A stretch of DNA of 55,635 bases from IMG/VR virus record IMGVR_UViG_3300026268_000003, positions 1 to 55,635 of that record; one strand, given 5' to 3'. Made by a program: the position numbers and the translations under genes. A model generated the notes under the pieces. The model searched no databases. It saw only the letters and a program-made list of their open reading frames with translations, and was not told the origin of the DNA. Positions 7,641 through 50,448 of this stretch are shown here, piece after piece (within the stretch, counting starts at the first letter, position 1; every line of letters starts with the position of its first letter). Source of the stretch: a virus (Duplodnaviria > Caudoviricetes).

Positions 7641-8426
7641 TCATGCTTTTTTAAACTTACTATACCACGTTTTAAAATTTCGTTTAGCAAAATTCTCAGC
7701 CTTCTCTTCCCACTTATTATCATCGTGTGGGTCAAATCCATGATGAGCTGCCATAGTACCAGCTTGGTTATACATCTTCAAAAACTTCTTTTTACCATAT
7801 TTTTTAGCCATTTGAGCATGATGAATTTCATGTAATACAGTCATTATAAAATCTTTTAAATCTGAAGTAGGTTCGAGTGTTATAGTATCAGTTTCAACAA
7901 CATAATCAGCTTTTACTTTACCTTTCTTATTAAGAAATCTAACTTTTGAATTTAATTTATGTAATTTAACTATAGCTTGAGCTATATGTAAAAAATCAAT
8001 TCTTTCTAAAATTAAATTTTCATTAAGTGTTTTTGTTTGTTTTCCATGTAAATCTACAGATTGTTGAACAAAATCTTGTCCTTTTGTACCAACACCAGAT
8101 GTTATAAAATCATCACTTTCAATTGGTTCTTGTGGTAAGTCTGGATTAAAGATAATATCTTGTCTCTCTCTTATTTGTGTATCATCACCAAATGGATTAT
8201 CACCCTTTGGAAATTCTAATTGTGTCCAACCACCTCTTGTAAACCACTCATCACTATTTTGACTACCTCTAATTCTACCAAGTCTACGTGCTACACCAGG
8301 TTTTACATACCCAGATTCTGGTTCACCAGAGTCTACTATTGAACCAGCGTTCGATACTTCTACCAATTGTTTATATAAACTTTTATTTTCCAAAATATTC
8401 TCCACTTTCATCTGATACAGTATCAT
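7641..8426 (-). CDS. Protein with C-terminal zincin-like metallopeptidase domain
   Basis: TVLHEIHHAQ (HExxH) with downstream WEEKAE third-ligand helix. Confidence 0.6.
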   Translation of the reverse strand: MILYQMKVENILENKSLYKQLVEVSNAGSIVDSGEPESGYVKPGVARRLGRIRGSQNSDEWFTRGGWTQLEFPKGDNPFGDDTQIRERQDIIFNPDLPQEPIESDDFITSGVGTKGQDFVQQSVDLHGKQTKTLNENLILERIDFLHIAQAIVKLHKLNSKVRFLNKKGKVKADYVVETDTITLEPTSDLKDFIMTVLHEIHHAQMAKKYGKKKFLKMYNQAGTMAAHHGFDPHDDNKWEEKAENFAKRNFKTWYSKFKKA

Positions 8427-9052: not shown

Positions 9053-9376
9053 TTATCTTGGTGGATTAGAATCCCACGGCCCCCAATGTTGGTTCTTTAA
9101 CATTTTAATACCAGCTTCTTCTCCAGTATATTTATAAATTTTATGTCCTTTAACAGGAATTCCTCCAACTTTATAGTATAATTTTTTAGACATATGAATT
9201 TCTCTTCCATTACTATAGTCAAATACTACGGAGCCTAATTCAACCCACGCATGACCAAATGGTTTACCATCAGTTTTTAAAATACCTACTCCGTGGCATA
9301 AAGTCCATCTTTCATCGTCCATATGACTAATAGCAAGTCTACCAGCCGCTCTATAACAATCTCCACTGGCCGCCAT
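9053..9376 (-). CDS. Small papain/transglutaminase-like Cys-His-Asp protein
   Basis: GDCY...GHAWVE...VFD triad spacing. Confidence 0.55.
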   Translation of the reverse strand: MAASGDCYRAAGRLAISHMDDERWTLCHGVGILKTDGKPFGHAWVELGSVVFDYSNGREIHMSKKLYYKVGGIPVKGHKIYKYTGEEAGIKMLKNQHWGPWDSNPPR

Positions 9377-9377
9377 T

Positions 9378-9782
9378 TTATTTTGTTACCCTCTTTACCT
9401 TTTCAATTGAACGACCAGCAAAATAAGCCGCATAAACAGTCATCAATAATGTCTGATAAACTGGAACATACGCCGCTCCTATTGTAAAGTCACCCAAATT
9501 TCCATCAAATACACTTAATATAACAAATACGGCTGTAAGAAAAATCAAAGTTAATGGTCTGATATTTTTACTCAACCAACTTCCATGTTTCATATCGGCT
9601 TCCCAACGAGCAGACACTTGAGCTTGTGCCGCTTGTTCAGCTGTTGCTAATATTTGTGTTATCTTTTGTTCTGCTTCGGCTCTTTCTTCACCTGATGTGT
9701 GTAAATTATCTAATACTCCACCAATATCTTTTATTACATCACCACCACTTAAAAACCCTGTAATTGCACTCATAACTCCCAT
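9378..9782 (-). CDS. Holin, 3TM / gene-transfer-agent holin family
   Basis: LDNLHTSGEER, RWEADM..SWLSKNIRP, hydrophobic helices and YFAGRSIEK, the pattern of the GTA_holin_3TM family. Confidence 0.8.
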   Translation of the reverse strand: MGVMSAITGFLSGGDVIKDIGGVLDNLHTSGEERAEAEQKITQILATAEQAAQAQVSARWEADMKHGSWLSKNIRPLTLIFLTAVFVILSVFDGNLGDFTIGAAYVPVYQTLLMTVYAAYFAGRSIEKVKRVTK

Positions 9783-9792
9783 AACTTATCTC

Positions 9793-10233
9793 CTAAAAAA
9801 CATCTTCGGCTAATACACCATCTATAGCAGATTTTATATCGCCATTATCTATATCCAACTCACCATCCATATCGCCTTTCCACACTTCAACCTTCTTACC
9901 ATTGTGGAATAACGCAACAGATGGATAGTTTCGTATTCGAAGTTTCTTGATTGCTTTCTTAACATTTGAATGATTAACTTCATAGATAATACACCCCTCA
10001 AAGCCTTTTATACCATCAAATAATTTAGAGTCAAGATTTTTCTTTTGATACGCCGCTGTAAATTTAATTAATACAAACCCCTTAGCTGTTTTTTTCTTAA
10101 AAGTATCATCTGTGATTTCTGGTTTCGTTGTAGGTGTTCGTTGTGCACTAACAAAATCTGTACATAATACAAACATAAGTCCTATTGCACATAAAACTTT
10201 AAATCCACGCCTAATTAATTGTATTCTATTCAT
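9793..10233 (-). CDS. Exported thioredoxin-fold protein lacking CXXC
   Basis: Signal-peptide-like N-terminus (…VSA|QR); VLIKFTAAYQ in place of VLVDFWAxWCxxC; IRNYPSVALFHNGKKV cis-Pro strand pair. Confidence 0.65.
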   Translation of the reverse strand: MNRIQLIRRGFKVLCAIGLMFVLCTDFVSAQRTPTTKPEITDDTFKKKTAKGFVLIKFTAAYQKKNLDSKLFDGIKGFEGCIIYEVNHSNVKKAIKKLRIRNYPSVALFHNGKKVEVWKGDMDGELDIDNGDIKSAIDGVLAEDVF

Positions 10234-10235
10234 AA

Positions 10236-10886
10236 CTATTTATCCCGTTTTCTCCGTTCAAGTGATTTTATATCATTTTGTAATTCTTTGATAACATCTT
10301 GAAGTTCTTCTATTTTTCCATAAGCCTCGTCCATTTCGTCCTGTAGACCTTCGACATTATCCTTATACTGTTCATAAGAACGAGGCCAGTTATATCCCTC
10401 TGGTCTTGATGGATACTCTCCTTCATATAATGATTTTAATGATGGGAGCTCTTTAGCTTCTTGTATGTCTGCCTGTAACATATACCACATACCAACCAAT
10501 GATGCAATTCCTGTGGCCGCACCAATCATTGTTTGTACTGATAAAGTGAACTTAGTACTTAGTACTGCTTCTTCACTTAATTCTTTTGGTTTGGACACTT
10601 TTTTCTCCTGTATAACTGGTTTCGGTTTACTCTTTGATTTTGAAATTTGTTTTTGTAATATTCTATCTCGTTTACTCTTTTCTACTTCGTCTGAAGCTTT
10701 ATTAGCTTGTTCCATCATAACTTCTGTTAAGTCTTCAACCGTAACATAACCCAATTCAACAAAGATTTCACCTAATTTTCTTTTATCACCTTGTGTTTGT
10801 ATCTGTACAGCTTTTGCAAGTTGTCGTTTTGTTATGATATCGGCGTCCATTAAAAGGTTGCCTAATCTTTCTCCATTCCGTGCCAT
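10236..10886 (-). CDS. MshEN-domain (c-di-GMP-binding type) membrane protein with C-terminal coiled coil
   Basis: Tandem motifs RLGNLLMDADIITKRQLAKAVQIQ and KLGEIFVELGYVTVEDLTEVMMEQ match MshEN RLGxxLxxxGxxxxxxLxxxLxxQ; TM MIGAATGIASLVGMWYML; heptad C-terminus. Confidence 0.75.
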   Translation of the reverse strand: MARNGERLGNLLMDADIITKRQLAKAVQIQTQGDKRKLGEIFVELGYVTVEDLTEVMMEQANKASDEVEKSKRDRILQKQISKSKSKPKPVIQEKKVSKPKELSEEAVLSTKFTLSVQTMIGAATGIASLVGMWYMLQADIQEAKELPSLKSLYEGEYPSRPEGYNWPRSYEQYKDNVEGLQDEMDEAYGKIEELQDVIKELQNDIKSLERRKRDK

Positions 10887-11437
10887 TATTCGCTCTCTTT
10901 AAATCGTACCTCGAACACATCGTGGTCATCAGTACCTTTATATTCTATTTGTGTTATGTCTGCCTCACCACCAAAGTGTTGAGCCACTCCCTTTAACATT
11001 CCAACTGCTAACGGAGCTAATCCATCTCTTTGTGATACATAGTGAACTTTAAAATGATTCTCACCGAGTTCTTCTATTTCAAATGCAGGTGGAACTAAAC
11101 TTGGTAACATTTGAGAAATTCTTACATGCATCTCATCTAATCCTGCCACAAAACTTTGAAAATCATTACCAAACGCTTCAAAGTACTCACCATACCCTTT
11201 TGGTGCAACATCGGTTGCCCAATAAACACCGAACATTTCTAATACATCTCCTGCAGGAATATCTAATGTTTCTGAAACTGCTCCTACTAATGAGAATGTT
11301 ACACTATCATCATAAGATTCTAAATCTCCATAAACATCTTTGTCTATACCAGATGCTACAAGAACTTGTTCCCAAACTTCTTCACCTGCTTCTCGTGTAA
11401 CTAAAGTTCTTATTGCTTTATTTATCATTCCATACAT
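10886..11437 (-). CDS. H-NOX (haem nitric-oxide/oxygen binding, HNOB) protein
   Basis: MYG N-terminus, FGxYW, proximal His104 (LDEMH), PPAF, Y133-x-S135-x-R137 haem-binding motif, GLAP...G, DHDVF; full-length stand-alone domain resembling Nostoc H-NOX and sGC beta1. Confidence 0.95.
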   Translation of the reverse strand: MYGMINKAIRTLVTREAGEEVWEQVLVASGIDKDVYGDLESYDDSVTFSLVGAVSETLDIPAGDVLEMFGVYWATDVAPKGYGEYFEAFGNDFQSFVAGLDEMHVRISQMLPSLVPPAFEIEELGENHFKVHYVSQRDGLAPLAVGMLKGVAQHFGGEADITQIEYKGTDDHDVFEVRFKESE

Positions 11438-11439
11438 TA

Positions 11440-11586
11440 TTATCTACCATATATATTTTTAATTGGATTATTTTTATTTTTCTCTAACCATTTTTTATGT
11501 TGACTAGCGGTTCGACCTTCCGTTGCCCACTTTTTATTTAACATCCGTCTTTTTCGTTTTCTATCTTTAGCTTTACTATTCGGCAT
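11440..11586 (-). CDS. 48-aa basic protein (MPNSKAKDRKRKRRMLNKKWATEGRT...)
   Basis: Below the ORF-track cut-off; overlaps the upstream stop and ends 2 nt before the H-NOX ATG. Confidence 0.6.
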   Translation of the reverse strand: MPNSKAKDRKRKRRMLNKKWATEGRTASQHKKWLEKNKNNPIKNIYGR

Positions 11587-12871
11587 TACTAAATCCTACA
11601 AATTGATAATTCAAACCAACTTTAAAATCATACGCTGGTCGTTCCCAGTAATATAAATAACGGCCTTCCGCAAAAAGTCCTAAATTTTCCTGTACTTTAA
11701 TTCCAAAAATTGCACCAAAATCATAATCATTCCAACTCATCCACATTGACTCCATATACATAAAATCAGAAGGTTCTTTACCTTCATCTACATGGTCTAT
11801 ATAAGAAGAGGCGTTGTGATATGAATATTTATCATGTCCATAATGATAAGGTAACCAATTACCCCACGCATGTATCCACCACCTATCTCCATAATGATAA
11901 TAATCAGTACCTATTACTAAAGATGTTTCTTTTTGATATCCTAAACCCTTTTTTATTCCATTCATGTATGATTCTAACAATCCTGGAAAATGATAAACAA
12001 AAAATTCTCTATCCGTCCATGCAATAATTTCTCCATCGGAAGTTTCCCACATATAATCATACCCAATAAATTCACCATCTCCATTAAAGAATGGGCCATC
12101 ACCAGGTACATCAATCCAAGTATCTGACTCTGCGTCGTAATATACTAAGTGACCTTCATGATATACATTATCTTCATCAACTATATACCATCTTTTATCA
12201 TCCATACCAAAAGCATCTTCGGCAAAATCCCACCAAGAACCTCTATACCAAGTTGTATCTAATATCATAGCATCAAATCCATATACAGGATGTTGTCTAT
12301 GTTTTGCACCAACACTAAATGTTATCTGATTACCTAAAAATTCTGGTGACCACTTTAATCTTAAATCACCTTGACCATAAGTTATTTCTTCTAAACCAAG
12401 TTCCGTCCAACCTAATTTAGCCATGAACCAATTACCAGTATATCTCAACCAATATTCTTGATTAAGATATTCATTTCCCCATTGACGACCTTCAGTCCAT
12501 TTTATTAAATATTCCCAACCTTTAACTGAACCAAATGTTGCATTTTCATTCGCGTTTTTTTCTGAACCATCGTACCAAGTTCCACCATTACCAGCATTCT
12601 TAACACCTCGTTTTGGTTCATAATTGAAACGACCAATTTTTCTCAATCCGAATGATTTTTGAAAATCAGCTTTTAATTCTCTTTCTTCCCTTTCAACTTC
12701 CAAGTCACCAGTATCCAATCCACCAACAATACTAAACCTATCCTCTTGATGTCGTGGTGCATTTAAACTAAAACTTGCATACGCAGTCGAGTACTTAAAA
12801 AAGTTTAGTATAATATCTTGACTAAACAAAGAAGTAGACAATAATAGTCCTATGAAAATGTTTTTTAACAT
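11576..12871 (-). CDS. Exported aromatic-rich protein, probable outer-membrane beta-barrel
   Basis: Signal peptide MLKNIFIGLLLSTSLFS|Q, many amphipathic W/Y/F strands, near-terminal DFKVGLNYQF beta-signal-like strand; GGGAG RBS. Confidence 0.55.
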   Translation of the reverse strand: MLKNIFIGLLLSTSLFSQDIILNFFKYSTAYASFSLNAPRHQEDRFSIVGGLDTGDLEVEREERELKADFQKSFGLRKIGRFNYEPKRGVKNAGNGGTWYDGSEKNANENATFGSVKGWEYLIKWTEGRQWGNEYLNQEYWLRYTGNWFMAKLGWTELGLEEITYGQGDLRLKWSPEFLGNQITFSVGAKHRQHPVYGFDAMILDTTWYRGSWWDFAEDAFGMDDKRWYIVDEDNVYHEGHLVYYDAESDTWIDVPGDGPFFNGDGEFIGYDYMWETSDGEIIAWTDREFFVYHFPGLLESYMNGIKKGLGYQKETSLVIGTDYYHYGDRWWIHAWGNWLPYHYGHDKYSYHNASSYIDHVDEGKEPSDFMYMESMWMSWNDYDFGAIFGIKVQENLGLFAEGRYLYYWERPAYDFKVGLNYQFVGFSNAE

Positions 12872-12909
12872 TTAATTTCTCCCAATATTTTTATTCTATC
12901 TATACAACT

Positions 12910-12917
12910 ATAAATAT
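12910..12917 (-). promoter_or_regulatory. ATATTTAT motif heading the beta-barrel/H-NOX/MshEN/holin operon
   Basis: In the 62-bp gap upstream of 12871, on the coding strand. Confidence 0.55.
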
Positions 12918-12933
12918 CATACTTTAGAATATT

Positions 12934-13968
12934 TTATACATCAAACCTAACGACAATTGAAAATGCTTCATCTTTATCACGTTTAATAGGTCTACCTAAC
13001 TTACCAATTGCTAAAAGGTCGTTGTGGTCATTATATAAACCAACTGTAGTTACATATGGCGAGAAATCTGAATGTGTTGTATGATTAATAGCGAATTCGG
13101 TAGCATTATAACTTGTTTTTACAGAACCACTTCCACCATCTGGATTATCACCAGGTGCAAATACCCTCCACGTGTCTGGTGAATTTGGAGCAACAGTTAT
13201 ACTACCACTTCTACCAGAAGTAGCACTAATATTAGTTGTTGTATTGAATTCTGTTTTACCAATATTACACATATACTCATGTTCATATATGGTATGACTA
13301 GCTTTAAAATCCAATTCCCAACCATCTGTACCATTTCCAAGTCCTACCTGACTATAAGAACCAGTATCTGTAATTGTAATGACCCCATGTTCATAAAAAA
13401 TATTACCTATTGCACTACCACTACCTTCTGCAGTTAAATTTGAACCATCCCAACTACTACTTTTAAATGCCGCGAAACTAGCAGAATAAGTATTGTCATA
13501 TAAATTCCCTTGACCATCATCATATATTGTATAAGTTACATCAGTGCTATCGTCTGTTAACTTAACACTCTTAGGTTTTATACCTTCACTATAAAATTTC
13601 TGGGGTATTGATATAACATTTACTCTATTATGTAAGTCTCTATAACATTTATTGGTATCTGTATTACCAAAACTATGAAATGGTTTATTACCATCTCTAT
13701 AATATAAGTGTCTCATAGACCAATAAGTTGGAATCTTATACCAAGTACCAAGACTCCAAGGGTCTTTACCTAAACTAGCAGAAATAGTGGAATAATCTCC
13801 AAATGAATGTGATTCCGCAGTTGATGTGTTGAAGTTGTGCCAACTTCCAGATAACCCTTCTATCGCGTAAACACCACTACCGCTATCAACATTTGTGAAT
13901 GTGAAATCTTTAAATGTTTTAAAGGGTGATATTAACGCGTCTTGTGGGTCGAGATTTTTAAATATCAT
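12934..13968 (-). CDS. Virion structural protein (tail collar/baseplate-associated)
   Basis: C-terminal YVTTVGLYNDHNDLLAIGKLGRPIK shared with the neighbouring gene; resembles tail-collar fibre domains. Confidence 0.55.
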   Translation of the reverse strand: MIFKNLDPQDALISPFKTFKDFTFTNVDSGSGVYAIEGLSGSWHNFNTSTAESHSFGDYSTISASLGKDPWSLGTWYKIPTYWSMRHLYYRDGNKPFHSFGNTDTNKCYRDLHNRVNVISIPQKFYSEGIKPKSVKLTDDSTDVTYTIYDDGQGNLYDNTYSASFAAFKSSSWDGSNLTAEGSGSAIGNIFYEHGVITITDTGSYSQVGLGNGTDGWELDFKASHTIYEHEYMCNIGKTEFNTTTNISATSGRSGSITVAPNSPDTWRVFAPGDNPDGGSGSVKTSYNATEFAINHTTHSDFSPYVTTVGLYNDHNDLLAIGKLGRPIKRDKDEAFSIVVRFDV

Positions 13969-13988: not shown

Positions 13989-15164
13989 CTAAAAGTCTAA
14001 TTTGACTTTGATAATAGCTTCCCTAGCGTAAGATTTCAATAAAGGTTTACTTAGTTTAGCAACAGCTAATAGTTCATTTTCATCGTTGTACATCCCAACA
14101 GTAGTAATATACGTCTTTGGGTCTTTATGAAACGATGGATTATTAAACGAACCATCAGATTGTGTAAAGAATGTAGGATTATTACTAAAATTATATCTCT
14201 TATTCCTTACTCTACAAAAATAATGTGTGGAAGAAATGTTTTCCTCTCTACGAGCTTGAAATTTACCACCACCAACAAATGCGTTATAGAACTTCTGGAT
14301 GTTTTCTTCAGCACCTGTGATTCCTCTATCAGTACCAAATGAACCAGAACCATCAGCTTGAGCGGCACTTATAATCCAAATACCTAAATCTGGATAAAAC
14401 AACCCAAGTCCACCATTTGGTTGACTTGTTGCCACTATTGATGTTTCCGCTACACCATTAGTTAATGAACCAGAAACAATGTTGAATACTCTTCCACCCT
14501 TATTTACTGATGGGTCAACTGTTGCACCACTATCATCAATTAGTTTCCAATAGGTTTGGCCAGTTGTATCTACACCACTACTACCACTTAACCAAAGTTC
14601 CCAATTACCTGGGTCAACTTTTTCTCTAATTCGTGCTCTATTAGCAGAAATTATATAAACATCATCTGAATCAACACTACCAGCCATTGTAAATTTAGTA
14701 TCATTTGGTGTCAATAAAATATTTCTAAATTGTGAATACATAGCTTTTGAAGCGGCATTATCACCACCGGTAGCCTTTGAACCACTACCAGCATAATGAC
14801 CATACGCAATACCAAATTGAACTTGAGCTGTATCATCACTTGGGTCTACTGCATAAATATCATTATAATACTCACCACTTGACGCACTTTGTGCCGAAGA
14901 AGTGAAATATGTAGCTAAACTACCAGTATTTCCAGACCACAATGGAGACGAAACCACCGCCTTCATATTTTCAAGTATATCATTATCTGGGTCAAAGACC
15001 GTATAGATACTTGGTTTTGTTATTGGGGCGGGTCTACCAATACTCTTACCAAGAAGTTTAGATGCAACTGATAAACCACCAATTCCTTTACCAGACTTTA
15101 CAGCATCTTCTATCTGTATAATTTCTTGTGTGGATAATCCCTTTTTCTTTTTTCCTTTAGCCAT
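13989..15164 (-). CDS. Virion structural protein, paralogue of 12934..13968
   Basis: C-terminal YITTVGMYNDENELLAVAKLSKPL; S/G-rich. Confidence 0.55.
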   Translation of the reverse strand: MAKGKKKKGLSTQEIIQIEDAVKSGKGIGGLSVASKLLGKSIGRPAPITKPSIYTVFDPDNDILENMKAVVSSPLWSGNTGSLATYFTSSAQSASSGEYYNDIYAVDPSDDTAQVQFGIAYGHYAGSGSKATGGDNAASKAMYSQFRNILLTPNDTKFTMAGSVDSDDVYIISANRARIREKVDPGNWELWLSGSSGVDTTGQTYWKLIDDSGATVDPSVNKGGRVFNIVSGSLTNGVAETSIVATSQPNGGLGLFYPDLGIWIISAAQADGSGSFGTDRGITGAEENIQKFYNAFVGGGKFQARREENISSTHYFCRVRNKRYNFSNNPTFFTQSDGSFNNPSFHKDPKTYITTVGMYNDENELLAVAKLSKPLLKSYAREAIIKVKLDF

Positions 15165-25478: not shown

Positions 25479-26608
25479 TATCTTATCACCCTAAATTCAA
25501 AATCATTATCTACAATTTGCACTACTTCACCAATTCCACTACCACTTACTATTTTATAATTAATCCTATAATTTCTTTCTGGTTGAAACCCTTGTAACCA
25601 AACATCAAAGAAATTTCCAGTTGAATCACAACCAATAATTGAACCACTACCAAAAGGAATAATCACATCTTCTGTATACGCATCTTTTATTTCAAAATAC
25701 GAACTACCACTTGGTAAATATTTTGGTGTTACTTGATTTGTAGTGGTTGACGACCAAGTTTTTGCAGGAAATCTTTCTCTACCAACAACTCTAAATCTAA
25801 CTTTAGAATCCTCTTGATACTCTGGTCTAAGTTCTTTCATATACACTTCTAAACTATGTAAGTCACTACCAGTTAATGGACTCAACGAACCAGTATTCCA
25901 CGCAGTATCATTCCAAACTACCTCAAGTTTTGGTGGATATATAGTATGAGTTTCACGTGAAAAAAATCTAAAATGACCTAACTTAGTAGTACTACCTTCT
26001 GCTAAAGTAGAATCTGAATTACCAACGCTACCACTTCTTTTCAATATAAATCCGTCATTCGGATAAGAAGACCCACTACTAATCCAGTTGTTTACAATAC
26101 CAGTTACATCCATTCTAACATCACTAGCTTCATTAGTAAATGATTGAGAAGCTTCTAAGGTATATGCACCAGAAGTTCCATTAAACCATGTTCCACCAGT
26201 ATCATTAGTACCATCAACCCATTGGTCATTCGCTGTCGGGCCCGTTCTAAACCTCCAAGACGCACCATCGGTAATTGGTGGCCAATCAAGGTATCTTCCC
26301 TCTCCATTTTCCCAAGATTGACTAACGGGATATGCATATAACACATCACTTGAACCCAATTCTTGTGAATTAGCATCATACAAATTCAAATAGTATTCAG
26401 CATCAGATGGTATCAATCCACTATTAATTGACTCTGATATGTACGTTAAATCAAACTGAATTAAAGCTCTGGAAACATTTATTTGTGTACCAGAATCATT
26501 CATATCTTTACGTACTTCTAATATTTCATCAAGACCAGTATTCTGACTTGATGTTGCATTTCCTTCATATAAAGTTGTATCTTTTGTAGCAAATTCAAAA
26601 TAATGCAT
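25478..26608 (-). CDS. Virion protein with DNRLRE-like beta-sandwich
   Basis: ATKDTTLYE, SRALIQFDL, MDVTGIVNNW, FFSRE..PKLEVVW pattern. Confidence 0.55.
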   Translation of the reverse strand: MHYFEFATKDTTLYEGNATSSQNTGLDEILEVRKDMNDSGTQINVSRALIQFDLTYISESINSGLIPSDAEYYLNLYDANSQELGSSDVLYAYPVSQSWENGEGRYLDWPPITDGASWRFRTGPTANDQWVDGTNDTGGTWFNGTSGAYTLEASQSFTNEASDVRMDVTGIVNNWISSGSSYPNDGFILKRSGSVGNSDSTLAEGSTTKLGHFRFFSRETHTIYPPKLEVVWNDTAWNTGSLSPLTGSDLHSLEVYMKELRPEYQEDSKVRFRVVGRERFPAKTWSSTTTNQVTPKYLPSGSSYFEIKDAYTEDVIIPFGSGSIIGCDSTGNFFDVWLQGFQPERNYRINYKIVSGSGIGEVVQIVDNDFEFRVIR

Positions 26609-28644
26609 TATATTACACTCCCTACTACTTGACCTTTTATATCACTATCTGGGTATTTTAATTCAAAAATACAAGGGTCTAATGATGGATATATTACACC
26701 ATTTTTATAAGCCGCTCCCATATCATATATGTGACCAGAGTAACCATTTGAAGTTCTCCACTTGTTTATTATACGAACTGGTAATTGTACTGGGTCACCA
26801 GGGCCATCACCATCTAAATCAATTGAGAATGGTATTAATTGAGCTACTCCATCAACCAATGATATCTGATATGATATGTCTGCTACCATTATTGGTTGGT
26901 TAATTTCCCATCTATCAACATCAAAAAAGTCTTTAATCTTCTGAATACACTTTAACAATACTTCTTCTTTATTGTATCCAGATTTAGTCATAATTTTAAA
27001 ATCAACACCTATATTAACAATCCACGCATCTTTTAAATTTATAGCATCAGTTACCATTCTATACTGACCAAGGTAATTTTTTAAGTTTTCCTTTACGGCT
27101 ACATTAGTAGTAGCTAAATTTTTATTATTATCATAACCAAGTAAATACATATTTAATGCTAATGGATTGGGTATTCTTGTAGGAACTTTTGGAGCTCCAG
27201 TTTCTGGTGAGTCATCTTGTCCATATAGACTTTTATCAATACTCCAAATACCAGTACCATCATTTGCTTCCTTTTGGAATTGGAATTGAGCTCCTTCTAA
27301 TTGTTCGTCAGGAACTATGTACGCTTTAGCTATAGCACCATATTTAGCAGGCATAGAATACGCTCTAATTATATAATCATATTTAGTAACAGTCCTTCCT
27401 TGAGCTTGAAAATGAGCTAATGCGTTTTGTTTTATCTCTACAACACTTTCTTTACCTTTACCACCACGTGCTGGATTTGGATTGATAACTCCAAGTGAAT
27501 TTCTTGTTTGGGTTACAGTAGCACTATTAAGACCAGTAGAAGTTAAACTAATATTCTTTTCTTTTATTTCAAGAATAGAACCCTCGGCTACATTATGACC
27601 CACGCCGCCTCCATGAGCATATTTTATAGTTAATATTGTATTACTTGGAGCTAATCCATACGCTTTTGTTTTTAAAAAGTTAGCCGGGTCAAATGTTCTA
27701 TCTAACATAGAAACACCTTCTGGTAAAGAAGAACCTACATTATCTGGATTTGGTATGATTTCCTCGTCGGCTCCCGATGAAATACCAGCTCCAAATCGTA
27801 ATTCCATTCTACCATCGGTTCTTACATACTTTGTAAATCTCCTTGGTGTTTTAATTAATTTAATTAAATAAGGAACATCATCTGAATATTGTGATAACTC
27901 TGGGTCTGCACTATCTGCATTAGATACATCATCAAATACAATATCTTTTGCTAAAAAATCTACTTCATACCAATTATTACCATCATTATCGGTAACAGAC
28001 ATAATATCAGTAACATTGGGTTTAGCTAACGCAATTCTATCATATTTTTTAGCTGTACCAAAGGTAAATGTTTCAGTTGTTATATCACCACTATATACAG
28101 ATGCAGTCTTTTTTAAAAGATATTTACTTGGGTCTGTACCAGAAGTTTCATATATAGTAGTTGAACGTGGTGCTACAGAACTTGAATTTGCAAAATCAAT
28201 ATCTTCTTGCATTCTAAATATAATACCACTTGTTGATTTCATTTGAGTACCATTTAATACTTTCATAGCGTATCTATAATCTGGTCTAATAGTATCACCA
28301 CTACCTATAGCTGGAACAGTTTGAAATAAATCTACTTTTGTTGAAGATGGTGTAGCTAACTTTGGTTTATACCCCAATGATTGAGCTATTTCAAAAACAT
28401 TTTCTATTTCTTCTGCATAAGATAACAAAGATTCTTTGAATCTATCATCAATATAATAAGACAATACATCCCCAACATAGGCTGCCATTTCAATAAACAT
28501 CATACCTGGGTCTGACTCATTAAAATCATTAAATGTGTTAGGAAAGTATGTTTTAGAAAAATCTATTAAACTATCTTTAAAGTTTGAAAAATCTTTACTA
28601 AGATATTTTACTTCTTTTTTTTCTGATTTTGCCGGTGTAGCCAT
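26608..28644 (-). CDS. Baseplate wedge subunit (T4 gp6 / baseplate J-like)
   Basis: KDF..FKDSL..F, GMMFIEMAAYVGDVLSYY, AQSLGYKP, LRFGAG, GG..ES..EIK, RTVTKYDY motifs. Confidence 0.88.
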   Translation of the reverse strand: MATPAKSEKKEVKYLSKDFSNFKDSLIDFSKTYFPNTFNDFNESDPGMMFIEMAAYVGDVLSYYIDDRFKESLLSYAEEIENVFEIAQSLGYKPKLATPSSTKVDLFQTVPAIGSGDTIRPDYRYAMKVLNGTQMKSTSGIIFRMQEDIDFANSSSVAPRSTTIYETSGTDPSKYLLKKTASVYSGDITTETFTFGTAKKYDRIALAKPNVTDIMSVTDNDGNNWYEVDFLAKDIVFDDVSNADSADPELSQYSDDVPYLIKLIKTPRRFTKYVRTDGRMELRFGAGISSGADEEIIPNPDNVGSSLPEGVSMLDRTFDPANFLKTKAYGLAPSNTILTIKYAHGGGVGHNVAEGSILEIKEKNISLTSTGLNSATVTQTRNSLGVINPNPARGGKGKESVVEIKQNALAHFQAQGRTVTKYDYIIRAYSMPAKYGAIAKAYIVPDEQLEGAQFQFQKEANDGTGIWSIDKSLYGQDDSPETGAPKVPTRIPNPLALNMYLLGYDNNKNLATTNVAVKENLKNYLGQYRMVTDAINLKDAWIVNIGVDFKIMTKSGYNKEEVLLKCIQKIKDFFDVDRWEINQPIMVADISYQISLVDGVAQLIPFSIDLDGDGPGDPVQLPVRIINKWRTSNGYSGHIYDMGAAYKNGVIYPSLDPCIFELKYPDSDIKGQVVGSVI

Positions 28645-28653
28645 TTAAATCTC

Positions 28654-29067
28654 CTAAAAATTGGAAAAGAAAGTTAATTGTAAAGAATCAAATACGCCTG
28701 GTTCTATAGTAACACCAAACTCTAATGAAACATCAATTTGATTTGGATTCTGTTCATCTACGATAACATCAATTCTATTAACAACTACGTGTGGTAACCA
28801 CATTTTTATAGCATCTTTAATAGCTTCTTCCACTTTCATTGTTGTATCACTTTGAATTGGGTCAAACAAAATAGAATATAAATCAGAACCAAACTCTGGC
28901 AAAAATGGTCGTTCACCTTTCATTGTCAATAATAAATTTTTTATATTATGTGACGTTTGTTCTAACGTTGTTTGTGTTTGTTGAAAAAATCCAGACGTAG
29001 ACCTACCAAGTGGAAATGATAATCCAATCCAAGTATCTGGGTTTAAATCATTTTCTAATGCACCCAT
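28654..29067 (-). CDS. Baseplate gp25-like sheath-initiator protein
   Basis: NIKNLLLTMKGERPFLPEFGSDL..LFDP, AIKMWLPHV. Confidence 0.9.
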   Translation of the reverse strand: MGALENDLNPDTWIGLSFPLGRSTSGFFQQTQTTLEQTSHNIKNLLLTMKGERPFLPEFGSDLYSILFDPIQSDTTMKVEEAIKDAIKMWLPHVVVNRIDVIVDEQNPNQIDVSLEFGVTIEPGVFDSLQLTFFSNF

Positions 29068-43471: not shown

Positions 43472-43484
43472 TTATTACTCCTTG

Positions 43485-43558
43485 AGTGCCGGGTGAGATT
43501 CGAACTCACGTACAATGGATTTGCAATCCACCCCATTAGACCACTCTGGCACCGACAC
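43485..43558 (-). tRNA. tRNA-Cys (GCA)
   Basis: Acceptor GTGTCGG/CCGGCAC, anticodon arm GTGGA-TTGCAAA-TCCAT, T arm GTGAG-TTCGAAT-CTCAC, U discriminator; CCA not encoded. Confidence 0.9.
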
Positions 43559-45187: not shown

Positions 45188-45296
45188 CGCGTCACTCCTA
45201 TTTGTTATGTTGGATTCATTTATAATAGGTTGAACCCTTTGACCTATTGTGAGATATATTACAGAATATGTAATGGTCTGATATCTCCTTTCATTG

Positions 45297-45369
45297 TGGA
45301 GCTGACAGGACTCGAACCTGCGACTTCCTCCGTGCAAGGGAGGCACTCTCCCAACTGAGTTACAGCCCC
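45297..45369 (-). tRNA. tRNA-Ala (TGC)
   Basis: GGGGCTG/CAGCTCC acceptor with G3:U70, CCTCC-CTTGCAC-GGAGG anticodon arm, GCAGG-TTCGAGT-CCTGT T arm; CCA not encoded. Confidence 0.95.
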
Positions 45370-49266: not shown

Positions 49267-50448
49267 TTAACTCATAGAGTTAGCGTTTTCAATTTCATCT
49301 TCATTAAACAAATCATCAGAAGAACCATCAGTAATATATTTCTGAACTAATTGTTTAACATAAGTTCTTTCAGACTCAAGTCCACCATCATCCGAAAACT
49401 GAGGATAGATACTAACTTCAGCCGCCTCATCAAGTCCAAAACCATCATAAAGTAAACCGGCTACTTCAACCGATGTACGAGTAGAAACTCCATTAGTAAT
49501 TCTACCTGTTTCAGATTTAGACTCTGAACGAGTAGTGGTAGTAATAGAAGCAACAGACTCAAGTAATGATTCATCAACGTGAGGAAACATATACTTTAAA
49601 AGACCATACTCTTCATCAGAAGTTAAGACATCCATCTCAACAACAATGAATCTATCCATAAGGGCTTTATCCATAACCCTTGTAGAAGTATACTCATTAC
49701 CAACGTTAGCAGTAGCAACGAAAGTTACACCTTCTGCAACACTAACAGTTTCAGCACCATCAGCCTCATCCAACCGAAGATATCTTTGACCTGTATCTAA
49801 TACAGTCATCAAGATATTCCACGCATCAGGATGAGCTCTTGATAATTCATCAAGAAGAATCACAGCGTTAGGTGTACGAATAGCTTTAACAAAAAGAGAT
49901 TCAGAAAAATAAGTTCCATCCTTTTTATCAAAGTGAGTATTACCAATTAAGGTAGACCGAGGGTCTTGAGTAGCACCCAAGTTAAAGTAGAAATCAGGTC
50001 TATCCATCGCATTAACAAGTGACTTAGCAGCCATTGTCTTACCACAACCAGCAGGACCAGTCATCAACATATTCTTACCACGAACAGCTGACCTAACTAA
50101 GAACTTCCATTTAAGTTCTGACATAACCAAACCTTTAGGTTTAAGTTTATAAGAACTATGTATAAAGTTAAGTACTTCAGCGTGGTCACTTGGTACATCA
50201 ACACTTGACGTATCAATTACTGGGGCTGAAGTTGATTCAAAAACAGACATAGGAACTGACCACCAGTAAGGTTTACCAGATTTGTTAATCCTACGTTCAA
50301 GGGCCATACCCTTAGCATAAGCTTTCTTTCGAGTACCAGTTCCAATCTCAGATGTTAATTTGTTACCATCAACATCCCAAGCATTGAATCGGTTACCCGA
50401 CTTTTCGATTTTTACAACAACAGAATTGTTATTGTCAATATTAGTCAT
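49267..50448 (-). CDS. MoxR/CbbQ/CobS-like AAA+ ATPase
   Basis: GPAGCGKT, LLDELSR, ATAN, DKALMDRF, STR sensor II. Confidence 0.88.
   Translation of the reverse strand: MTNIDNNNSVVVKIEKSGNRFNAWDVDGNKLTSEIGTGTRKKAYAKGMALERRINKSGKPYWWSVPMSVFESTSAPVIDTSSVDVPSDHAEVLNFIHSSYKLKPKGLVMSELKWKFLVRSAVRGKNMLMTGPAGCGKTMAAKSLVNAMDRPDFYFNLGATQDPRSTLIGNTHFDKKDGTYFSESLFVKAIRTPNAVILLDELSRAHPDAWNILMTVLDTGQRYLRLDEADGAETVSVAEGVTFVATANVGNEYTSTRVMDKALMDRFIVVEMDVLTSDEEYGLLKYMFPHVDESLLESVASITTTTRSESKSETGRITNGVSTRTSVEVAGLLYDGFGLDEAAEVSIYPQFSDDGGLESERTYVKQLVQKYITDGSSDDLFNEDEIENANSMS

Follow-up and report, generated by a model that had tools for sequence, protein, structure and literature searches.

A phage-encoded H-NOX protein and its membrane-protein neighbour: a candidate gas-sensor cassette on an older envelope module

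Stand-alone haem nitric oxide (NO)/oxygen-binding (H-NOX) proteins of bacteria, such as those of the H-NOX/HnoK and H-NOX/HaCE pairs, are single-domain haem sensors of about 180 amino acids (aa) encoded next to their partner, and in soluble guanylate cyclase (sGC) the H-NOX domain contacts a coiled coil. Here we describe an H-NOX gene of a tailed phage together with the membrane-protein gene that follows it, both located in a stretch of 55,635 nucleotides (nt) that makes up positions 1 to 55,635 of IMG/VR record IMGVR_UViG_3300026268_000003 (the window, which represents about 29% of the genome according to CheckV). Our best explanation as a whole, which we regard as probable, is a two-gene gas-sensor cassette on top of an older phage envelope module.

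The phage protein shares with the cellular sensors its size, its place beside a partner gene and the conserved haem His and Y-x-S-x-R motif. It is also predicted to touch its partner through both subdomains, as has been found for cellular H-NOX proteins through mass spectrometry with hydrogen-deuterium exchange (HDX-MS) and nuclear magnetic resonance (NMR), according to those portions of PMC8738867 that deal with partner contacts. Unlike the partners of cellular H-NOX operons, the protein encoded next to it is a 216-aa bitopic membrane protein in which kinase, cyclase, phosphodiesterase and chemoreceptor domains are all lacking; a phage carries the pair, none of the 79 cellular loci compared has it, and its output would be conformational and not enzymatic. 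As in sGC, the H-NOX is predicted to sit on a long helix leading into the rest of the partner. In contrast to sGC, two separate polypeptides are involved, PAS and cyclase domains are missing, and the helix runs on into a membrane span.

The partner resembles the MshEN receptors of cyclic di-GMP (c-di-GMP), namely Vibrio cholerae MshE, the GSPII domain of Thermus PilF and Escherichia coli NfrB, in its tandem 24-residue motif, its sequence matches and its superposition on MshE. In contrast to them, it keeps only the helical half of the domain of about 140 aa, a transmembrane (TM) helix and a periplasmic coiled coil take the place of the ATPase or glycosyltransferase, and it is encoded by a phage. 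Two lysis systems are also close in some respects. In T4 lysis inhibition, the holin T is controlled by cytoplasmic RIII and periplasmic RI. The present locus could be likened to it solely in the way it would work, with a bitopic N-in/C-out protein of about 216 aa encoded after the tail-fibre genes, a predicted cytoplasmic binder and an exported neighbour, whereas Pfam and PHROG showed no family likeness to T, RI or RIII and a holin of a different family is encoded separately in the window. In its short forms (112-122 aa, TM helix plus periplasmic coiled coil), the membrane protein has the topology of an i-spanin, and the next gene overlaps by 4 nt and codes for an exported protein, as in Rz/Rz1. 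Unlike in Rz/Rz1, this exported partner is a thioredoxin fold of 123-146 aa without conserved Cys or lipobox, not an o-spanin, and neither protein matched a spanin PHROG.

The H-NOX gene and its constant neighbour

The two genes and the parts of the membrane protein discussed below are the following:
10886..11437, minus strand: stand-alone H-NOX (haem NO/oxygen-binding) protein, 183 aa, isoelectric point (pI) 4.3, no cysteine, Pfam HNOB
10236..10886, minus strand: 216-aa bitopic inner-membrane protein with an MshE-type c-di-GMP motif, basic linker helix, disordered spacer, TM helix and periplasmic helix
10707..10868, minus strand: tandem 24-residue MshEN motif, residues 7-60, four-helix subdomain only, NCBIfam NF053729
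10632..10694, minus strand: basic juxtamembrane helix, residues 65-85, predicted H-NOX docking site
10476..10550, minus strand: single TM segment, residues 113-137, rich in Gly/Ala/Ser/Thr and weakly hydrophobic

The H-NOX stop and the start of the membrane-protein gene (hereafter the MshEN gene) overlap by 1 nt (TAATG). A scan of IMG/VR with the H-NOX protein returned 13 loci of 77-93% identity, and the MshEN gene was found immediately downstream in all 11 that have downstream DNA. The metagenome scan gave 80 contigs with 64 distinct H-NOX proteins, and in the 76 with at least 250 nt downstream the next gene was always the MshEN gene (76/76), at a distance of -1 to 22 nt; the two sets probably share source assemblies and are therefore not independent. 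The pairing was kept in three genomic backgrounds: the long form of the membrane protein with barrel and thioredoxin-fold genes, the divergent locus L004, and a second clade (clade 2) which has neither barrel nor thioredoxin-fold gene. No MshEN-like neighbour was present within 4 kb of H-NOX in any of the 79 cellular loci.

The reverse dependence does not hold. The IMG/VR scan with the MshEN protein yielded 43 loci with three forms of the protein: a long form of 181-222 aa with the MshEN motif, the clade 2 form of 164-173 aa with a shortened periplasmic part, and a short form of 112-122 aa without the motif (loci L050 and L054, from which no open reading frame (ORF) was obtained, were dropped from this survey of forms). 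The motif is carried by 23 of the 43 loci (L008 and L015-L036), and 22 of them could be tested for H-NOX, L031 having no upstream DNA; H-NOX lies upstream in 10 of the 22 and is absent from 12. The order barrel, membrane protein, thioredoxin fold occurs with and without H-NOX. Since both the module and the MshEN motif exist without it, H-NOX is an add-on and not a core component, although it was never found without the MshEN protein at loci having downstream DNA. The conserved unit thus consists of two genes, H-NOX and the MshEN membrane protein. This is narrower than the initial annotation, which had read six genes as one unit wired to a holin, a view that is not supported in that form, given the 12 loci without H-NOX, the mobility of the basic peptide and the presence of a holin near few loci. 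When synteny was checked across viral contigs, as had been proposed there, the H-NOX/MshEN pair proved strict, while the basic peptide and the holin were not constant members.

The identity of the 183-aa protein is clear. It matched Pfam HNOB (PF07700) at 5.3e-44 with 150.5 bits (cut-off 25.5) over profile positions 1-162 of 163, a match reproduced by the six-frame search, and its best match in the PDB was the Nostoc H-NOX Alr2278 (2.6e-44), with sGC beta1 at 9e-28. H104, the proximal haem-ligating His, aligns with Nostoc H105, and the Y-x-S-x-R motif Y133-V-S135-Q-R137 aligns with Nostoc Y134-Q-S-T-R138. In 28 H-NOX sequences, H104, Y133, R137, P116, P117 and W73 were invariant and S135 was at least 90% conserved. 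Leu143 aligns with Nostoc Met144, a column which we take to be the position of the distal-pocket Tyr, a residue that marks O2-binding members of the family and is lacking in NO-selective ones. None of the usual output enzymes of H-NOX was detected in the window, with its 29% or so of the genome (no GGDEF, EAL or HATPase_c), in agreement with the initial annotation, whose domain assignments (H-NOX, MshEN, thioredoxin fold, holin and probable barrel) were all upheld by the profile and fold searches.

The H-NOX gene is under strong purifying selection: pairwise ratios of nonsynonymous to synonymous substitution rates (dN/dS) were 0.04-0.16, compared with 0.16-0.45 for the membrane protein, the thioredoxin fold and the barrel at comparable dS. 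Recent transfer was considered as the sole cause of the high identity among the H-NOX proteins and was rejected, since H-NOX dS (0.43-0.65 versus L016 and L019) is of the same order as that of the neighbours (0.81-1.22) and H-NOX dN is three to six times below theirs. The phage proteins form a separate clade, with 77 protein clusters at 72% identity or more and then a gap down to 46%, and no cellular H-NOX found exceeds 46% identity to them. A search of 185,579 species genomes gave, as its 79 best cellular loci, proteins from many phyla with 44% identity at most, and no donor can be named. The single close match in these genomes (L057, 77% identity) lies on a phage-like contig of 49 kb in a metagenome-assembled genome of an uncultured Methanosarcinales archaeon. 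It carries a clade 2 H-NOX with an MshEN neighbour and is most likely a phage contig misbinned into the archaeal genome.

The N-terminal part of the membrane protein was recognised by NF053729 ('c-di-GMP_motif, MshE-related') at 4.4e-14 with 52 bits (cut-off 38), over residues 7-60 and profile positions 1-53 of 53. Its sequence matches in the PDB were to the N-termini of PilF (7e-9), PilB (1e-7) and MshE (8e-4), with a likeness that extends to NfrB, and the motif aligns with residues 8-61 of MshE. At the two motif starts, G9 and G39 were invariant and L8 and L38 at least 90% conserved in 30 sequences; mutation of the NfrB residues L490, G491 and L537 reduced NfrB function, as stated in the part of PMC8669469 that concerns them. 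In the AlphaFold2 (AF2) model, the mean predicted local distance difference test (pLDDT) was 56, with values of 71-81 over residues 10-60; four short helices are followed by a long helix reaching residue 84, a disordered spacer, the TM helix and a periplasmic helix. The top nine Foldseek chains (five entries) were all MshE or PilF GSPII domains, c-di-GMP-bound MshE (5htl) being matched with a root-mean-square deviation (rmsd) of 1.4 A over 55 columns and E 0.028. VIA-align gave Z 7.7 for 5htl and 7.4 and 7.1 for PilF, values below 8 that are modest for a helical unit. Both fold searches put c-di-GMP-bound MshE (5htl) in first place, and the superposition on it had an rmsd of 1.4-1.8 A over 55-56 residues.

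The hydropathy scan and the AF2 model agree with the topology proposed in the initial annotation, with the MshEN motif in the cytoplasm, a single TM helix and then a helix in the periplasm. Conservation within the family is highest in the TM segment, and K112, F113, T119, G126, G132, Y135, I141 and Q142 were invariant in 21 sequences that included short forms without the MshEN motif. Its Kyte-Doolittle peak is 1.43 and the model has a helix at residues 105-145. Such a conserved, Gly/Ala-rich and weakly hydrophobic segment suits a protein that works by TM packing. The family as a whole is large, with 4334 protein clusters at E <= 1e-3 versus 89 for the H-NOX clade.

Relatives of the H-NOX gene also occurred in contigs of RNA libraries (4/4 runs from 4 studies, DNA carry-over being possible), and one such contig of 636 nt spans the H-NOX/MshEN junction with 85 differing letters. 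These contigs attest that relatives are present and are a weak hint of expression, without implying transcription. As a separate observation, an RNA-library contig from run X7 joins window position 12867, just upstream of the barrel start, to position 10776 inside the MshEN gene with 35 other letters between them; its source may be a relative whose genes are ordered differently.

A predicted docking helix

In the alignment of the membrane proteins, a segment at about residues 62-90 that includes E-K-S-K-R-D-R-x-L-Q-K-Q-I is present only in H-NOX-linked proteins. The helix motif was found in 12 of 12 H-NOX-linked IMG/VR contigs (the window and L004 included) and in none of 12 MshEN proteins without H-NOX; L031, whose upstream DNA is cut, carries the helix. 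All 76 metagenome loci have it, 73 as K[SGA]KRD and 3 as RSKRD.

The complex of H-NOX (28-row alignment) plus haem with residues 1-108 of the membrane protein was then predicted. The three runs reached ipSAE values, which express model confidence, of 0.50, 0.66 and 0.70 (median 0.66), compared with 0.00 for the best of three controls. The runs shared at least 66% of their contacts, and on the partner the pLDDT did not fall below 71. Of 80 solved complexes in the calibration, 58 attained the mark, as did 2 of 110 mismatched pairs, rates that are valid only roughly here, since own alignments were used and haem was included. The predicted interface comprises residues 65, 69-70, 72-74, 76-81 and 83-85 of the partner and residues 44-66, 137-145 and 162-168 of H-NOX, which belong to both of its subdomains. 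This is the same helix that had been singled out beforehand by the alignment, and the charges are complementary, with a pI of 4.3 for H-NOX versus a Lys/Arg-rich helix. H-NOX is thus predicted to dock onto the helix at residues 65-85. Strict synteny, the co-varying helix and the complex prediction all speak for the two proteins working together, and the multimer modelling of the gene pair suggested in the initial annotation separated it from the controls. For cellular H-NOX proteins, the portions of PMC8738867 considered here describe a rotation of the subdomains about a Gly hinge upon NO binding, and report no solved complex of an H-NOX with its partner.

These data lead us to propose the following mechanism. 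Its starting points are the gene content, the synteny, the co-varying helix, the conserved residues of haem pocket and c-di-GMP motif and the purifying selection; its next step is the predicted docking, and from there we infer the ligand, the binding of c-di-GMP and the envelope or lysis output. The 183-aa protein would be a haem-binding H-NOX of the O2-excluding type that senses NO or CO. Its acidic surface, formed by both subdomains, would dock on the basic helix 65-85 between the MshE-type motif and the TM helix. Binding of gas to the haem would re-orient the two subdomains, as in cellular H-NOX proteins, and this shift would change their hold on the helix and with it the state of the membrane protein, through oligomerisation or TM packing and with no enzymatic output. 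The membrane protein would act within an ancestral late-gene module made of an outer-membrane barrel, the bitopic protein with its periplasmic coiled coil and an exported, redox-dead thioredoxin fold. This module is situated between the tail-fibre genes and, in some phages, the lysis genes, and would most likely serve a late envelope step such as lysis timing or disruption of the outer membrane.

The older module and the competing explanations

The genes around the pair that are needed for this question are listed here:
11576..12871, minus strand: exported protein of 431 aa, probably an outer-membrane beta-barrel; its gene opens the older module
11440..11586, minus strand: 48-aa very basic protein, pI 11.5, 17 Lys plus Arg residues
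9793..10233, minus strand: 146-aa exported thioredoxin-fold protein without redox site
9378..9782, minus strand: 134-aa holin, phrog_3427
9053..9376, minus strand: 107-aa protein (p107), transglutaminase-core or McjB-like lead only

The six genes from barrel to holin named in the initial annotation were found at their place as six minus-strand ORFs (9378-12871). In order, barrel and basic peptide overlap by 11 nt, basic peptide and H-NOX are separated by 2 nt, the MshEN and thioredoxin-fold genes by 2 nt, and the thioredoxin-fold and holin genes by 10 nt. Overlaps and gaps thus measure at most 11 nt, and the TAATG overlap had been read correctly. A seventh gene, that of p107, begins 1 nt past the holin stop, and the block therefore extends further than had been thought. 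The late promoter postulated in front of the block was not substantiated: the 62-nt gap upstream of the barrel gene contains promoter-like matches, and the scan of the region for promoters and terminators found sites no more numerous than in shuffles (20 promoter-like sites versus 19.7 expected).

Barrel, membrane coiled-coil protein and thioredoxin fold constitute an older module that also exists without H-NOX. The barrel protein has a signal-peptide-like hydrophobic segment at its N-terminus and matched no Pfam, PHROG or NCBIfam family. Its AF2 model (mean pLDDT 57) has about 12 long strands of 9-17 residues, and the 34 top-listed PDB entries found by Foldseek were all outer-membrane barrels with E around 1e-6 and a TMq of only 0.2-0.35, the matches listed including NanC, OprB, PorB, BcsC, FapF, OmpG and autotransporters; the Atlas leads were barrel families at 0.92-0.93. 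Of 37 metagenome loci whose DNA extends 1500 nt or more on that side, 23 have a barrel gene upstream of H-NOX. The thioredoxin-fold protein passed Pfam Thioredoxin (PF00085) with 26.7 bits (cut-off 23.5) and matched TXNDC5 domains (1.2e-8 and 2e-4). The CxxC site is absent, the position of TXNDC5 W-C-G-H-C falling in a gap, and no Cys is conserved in 19 sequences, in all of which the cis-Pro loop K-L-R-x-R-N-x-P-S is invariant, its R-N-x-P-S aligning with TXNDC5 R-G-Y-P-T. In every long-form metagenome locus that extends at least 1300 nt downstream (42 of 42), its gene comes next after that of the membrane protein.

The 48-aa basic protein is a real gene and not a fixed member of the module. 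Homologues of 65-81% identity lie after the thioredoxin fold in L016, L017 and L022 and before the MshEN gene in L026, and the basic protein is immediately upstream of H-NOX in 3 of 65 metagenome loci. At three loci without H-NOX (L017:4671-4997, L018:4668-4997 and L021:4674-4997), the MshEN gene is preceded by that of a protein of 107-109 aa with one TM segment and an extremely basic C-tail, which resembles the free-floating 48-aa protein of the window; no PHROG or Pfam family matched it. In clade 2, the place of the barrel is taken by a gene before H-NOX (L007:5528-6001) whose 157-aa product has a lipoprotein-type signal (L-L-G-C), is 83-100% conserved in the clade and matched no family. In most long-form loci, the thioredoxin fold or the basic peptide is followed by an HExxH metallopeptidase-like domain of about 130 aa (C-terminal half of window 7641-8426; L017:6180-6572), for which only sub-threshold zincin-like Pfam matches were obtained. 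The p107 gene follows the thioredoxin fold immediately in L019, and among the 31 metagenome loci with 2000 nt or more of downstream DNA, 7 have it. An endolysin function of p107 was considered and not adopted: there was only a sub-threshold match to Pfam Transglut_core3 (0.022) and an Atlas lead (one neighbour cluster named McjB C-terminal domain, score 0.97), with no PDB sequence match.

The signal peptides of the module suggest the host. Gln18 follows the predicted cleavage site in 13 of 13 barrel homologues, and in the alignment of the thioredoxin-fold homologues a Gln follows it in 18 of 19. A Gln at this place (the Q-rule) is described as specific to Bacteroidetes in the relevant part of PMC5837995, and these residues therefore suggest, at the level of sequence, a host from the Bacteroidota. 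GGDEF was not found in five phage contigs searched nor EAL in the window, and a Bacteroides thetaiotaomicron control genome gave no match in either the GGDEF or the EAL search.

Regarding lysis, the 134-aa protein matched the holin family phrog_3427 (1.2e-26, profile positions 10-139 of 141) and, below the cut-off of 24.8, Pfam GTA_holin_3TM (2.8e-4, 21.8 bits). A 64-nt DNA match of its gene coincides with a gene of Vibrio phage helene 12B3 that carries the annotation holin, and a simple hydropathy scan (threshold 1.4) showed one clear segment at residues 74-92. A holin is adjacent to or near the module in the window, L015 and L023, as well as in 2 of the 31 metagenome loci whose downstream DNA reaches 2 kb or more. 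In clade 2, a GH108 endolysin (phrog_315 6e-45; Pfam 5e-25) is encoded about 0.9 kb downstream of the H-NOX/MshEN pair, with small TM or coiled-coil genes in between, one of which codes for a 96-aa protein with a weak Rz-like PHROG match (0.0034). The module lies after the baseplate, tail and tail-fibre genes. Among the outputs considered, control of lysis is the likeliest one, although we put it forward tentatively; it is plausible and no more than that, because a known holin or endolysin is found within 3 kb in just 5 of 24 loci.

Several findings weigh against the proposed cassette and its output. H-NOX is an add-on that 12 of 22 testable loci do without, and no fusion of H-NOX with another protein ('Rosetta stone') was detected at E <= 0.001 among 1314 candidates of 322-2000 aa, which is weak evidence. 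A full MshEN/T2SSE_N domain (about 110-145 aa) has a C-terminal alpha/beta subdomain. The MshEN unit of the phage protein is the helical half only: Pfam T2SSE_N did not match, even with residues 1-70 at E <= 1, DUF4388 appeared only below threshold, and the model passes from helix 4 directly into the linker helix and then the disordered spacer. Q60, which closes the second motif, is lost in the copies without H-NOX. Both structural models, those of the barrel and the membrane protein, are of low confidence (pLDDT 56-57), and sGC structures in the PDB with H-NOX beside signalling helices (6jt0 and others) may contribute by likeness to the ipSAE of the complex. As to lysis, four related contigs, 31-70% complete, lack the holin family seen in the window, only the 5 loci mentioned have a holin or GH108 endolysin within 3 kb downstream, and the membrane protein had no PHROG match to holins, antiholins or spanins; the thioredoxin fold lacks a lipobox, and hence the two do not make a classical spanin pair. 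Finally, c-di-GMP may be scarce in the host if this belongs to the Bacteroidota.

It is quite possible, then, that gas is the single input of the device. H-NOX would dock as proposed, and the MshEN-like helices would bind no c-di-GMP and would serve dimerisation or contact with another protein, in the manner of the N1 domains of GspE/PilB ATPases, for instance with a pilus or secretion platform protein of the host. This would fit the missing half of the domain and the T2SSE_N result, the Asp16 at motif position 10 where MshE has Gly, the lack of conservation of Q60 in copies without H-NOX, the absence of GGDEF from the five phage contigs and of EAL from the window, and the control genome without either domain, Bacteroidota being the group to which the signal peptides point in the light of PMC5837995 as far as it treats the Q-rule. 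Four consecutive type IV pilin- or pseudopilin-like N-termini (G-F-T-L-I-E class, recognised by eye) are encoded just downstream of the thioredoxin fold in L026 (L026:6110-8065), a related phage contig of 131 kb, which also favours it and is of note since the N-domain of the MshEN protein comes from ATPases of pili or type II secretion systems. On the other side, the curated model of the c-di-GMP motif was passed well above its cut-off and at full length, the best structural matches are c-di-GMP-bound MshE and PilF, and conservation extends to the Leu and Gly at each of the two R/K-L-G starts, residues whose mutation reduced the function of NfrB in the results quoted from PMC8669469.

The opposite extension, an enzyme-free checkpoint with two inputs, is unlikely in our estimate. 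NO sensor and c-di-GMP motif would converge on the juxtamembrane helix of a holin- or antiholin-like bitopic protein whose coiled coil engages thioredoxin fold and barrel, and lysis would be delayed or triggered by the nitrosative or anoxic state and the biofilm state of the host. If true, this would make it a counterpart of T4 lysis inhibition based on chemical sensing, and the first viral gas-sensing decision circuit.

We also doubt, to a similar degree, that the module serves something other than lysis, such as superinfection exclusion, receptor masking or envelope remodelling, with a barrel placed in the host envelope, held by the thioredoxin-fold adaptor and the inner-membrane anchor and tuned by H-NOX to the physiology of the host. 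The presence or absence of lysis genes nearby makes no difference to the order of barrel, membrane protein and thioredoxin fold, only 5 of 24 loci have recognised lysis genes within 3 kb, none of the three proteins matched a lysis PHROG, and the module is placed after tail and tail-fibre genes. Yet PADLOC found no defence or exclusion model on the module beyond a chance-level match of Cas6a on the thioredoxin fold, and the next recognisable genes are lysis genes in three backgrounds. Moreover, clade 2 retains H-NOX and membrane protein and loses barrel and thioredoxin fold, which is a better fit to an inner-membrane device than to one of the outer membrane.

It is very unlikely that the H-NOX is directed at the host, as a mimic or decoy for the partners of a host H-NOX (histidine kinase, diguanylate cyclase or phosphodiesterase) that would reset biofilm formation or motility, with the MshEN adjacency due to co-transfer. 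Cellular stand-alone H-NOX proteins do act on separate partner proteins, as described in the passages of PMC8738867 devoted to them, and no histidine kinase, GGDEF or EAL partner is encoded in the window. However, a clade at most 46% identical to the cellular proteins found, beyond a gap from 72% to 46%, is a poor basis for mimicry, and none of the best 79 cellular loci is labelled Bacteroidota. Across 64 distinct H-NOX proteins and three genomic backgrounds the adjacency never varies, the partner helix exists only alongside H-NOX, and the complex prediction passes its controls. Least probable of all, and close to dismissal, is a buffer of haem or NO that shields phage replication from nitrosative stress without signalling: H-NOX proteins bind NO tightly and the gene occurs widely in metagenomes from the sea, with 183 contigs confirmed, but a stoichiometric binder is a poor detoxifier, and the strict coupling to one membrane protein and the dedicated docking helix would be left without reason.

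Further features of the window, novelty and significance

The window has a GC content of 27-36% and its long ORFs are nearly all on the minus strand. Baseplate wedge proteins are encoded at 26608-29067, and there are also genes for an SbcC-like nuclease, a primase and a RusA-like resolvase; the source virus is therefore a large myovirus. Upstream of the module, in the tail region, the neighbours at 12934-13968 and 13989-15164 are paralogues that cross-match in a conserved C-terminal stretch of about 50 aa, and the second of them (tail protein p391) has relatives, among GenBank phages, in Flavobacterium phage immuto, Microcystis phage Mel-JY01 and Rhodothermus RM378. Elsewhere, an AAA ATPase among the features at 49267-50448 and 39268-40467 matches a PHROG labelled 'porphyrin biosynthesis' (4.7e-25), a dehydrogenase matches phrog_9582 (4.6e-94), and tRNA-Cys and tRNA-Ala genes are found at 43484-43558 and 45296-45369.

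When H-NOX, MshEN protein and barrel were compared by tblastn with 50,697 GenBank phage records, no match was obtained, and searches of the full-text literature (outside subscription journals and supplements) turned up neither a phage-encoded H-NOX nor a phage-encoded MshEN protein. The statement of the initial annotation that no phage system of this kind had been described is thus supported by the literature and the GenBank phages searched. An H-NOX with a dedicated neighbouring partner is known; new are the type of partner, the non-enzymatic output proposed for it and the viral setting.

Phages that sense peptides and quorum signals are known, and no virus-encoded haem gas sensor has been described in the literature and the 50,697 phage records searched. 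In the sea, NO marks denitrifying, low-oxygen and algal-stress conditions. Because the H-NOX gene is common in marine metagenomes and strongly constrained, the cassette likely matters for infection there, and the phages that bear it may read chemical signals of their host late in infection. The membrane protein would be a minimal H-NOX partner, with a helix of about 20 residues predicted as the whole docking site, and could give the first tractable complex of an H-NOX with its partner, together with a conformational output in place of an enzymatic one. The finding also points to a large family of modules of membrane protein, thioredoxin fold and barrel, with 4334 clusters of the membrane protein, that lie next to the tail and lysis genes of phages.

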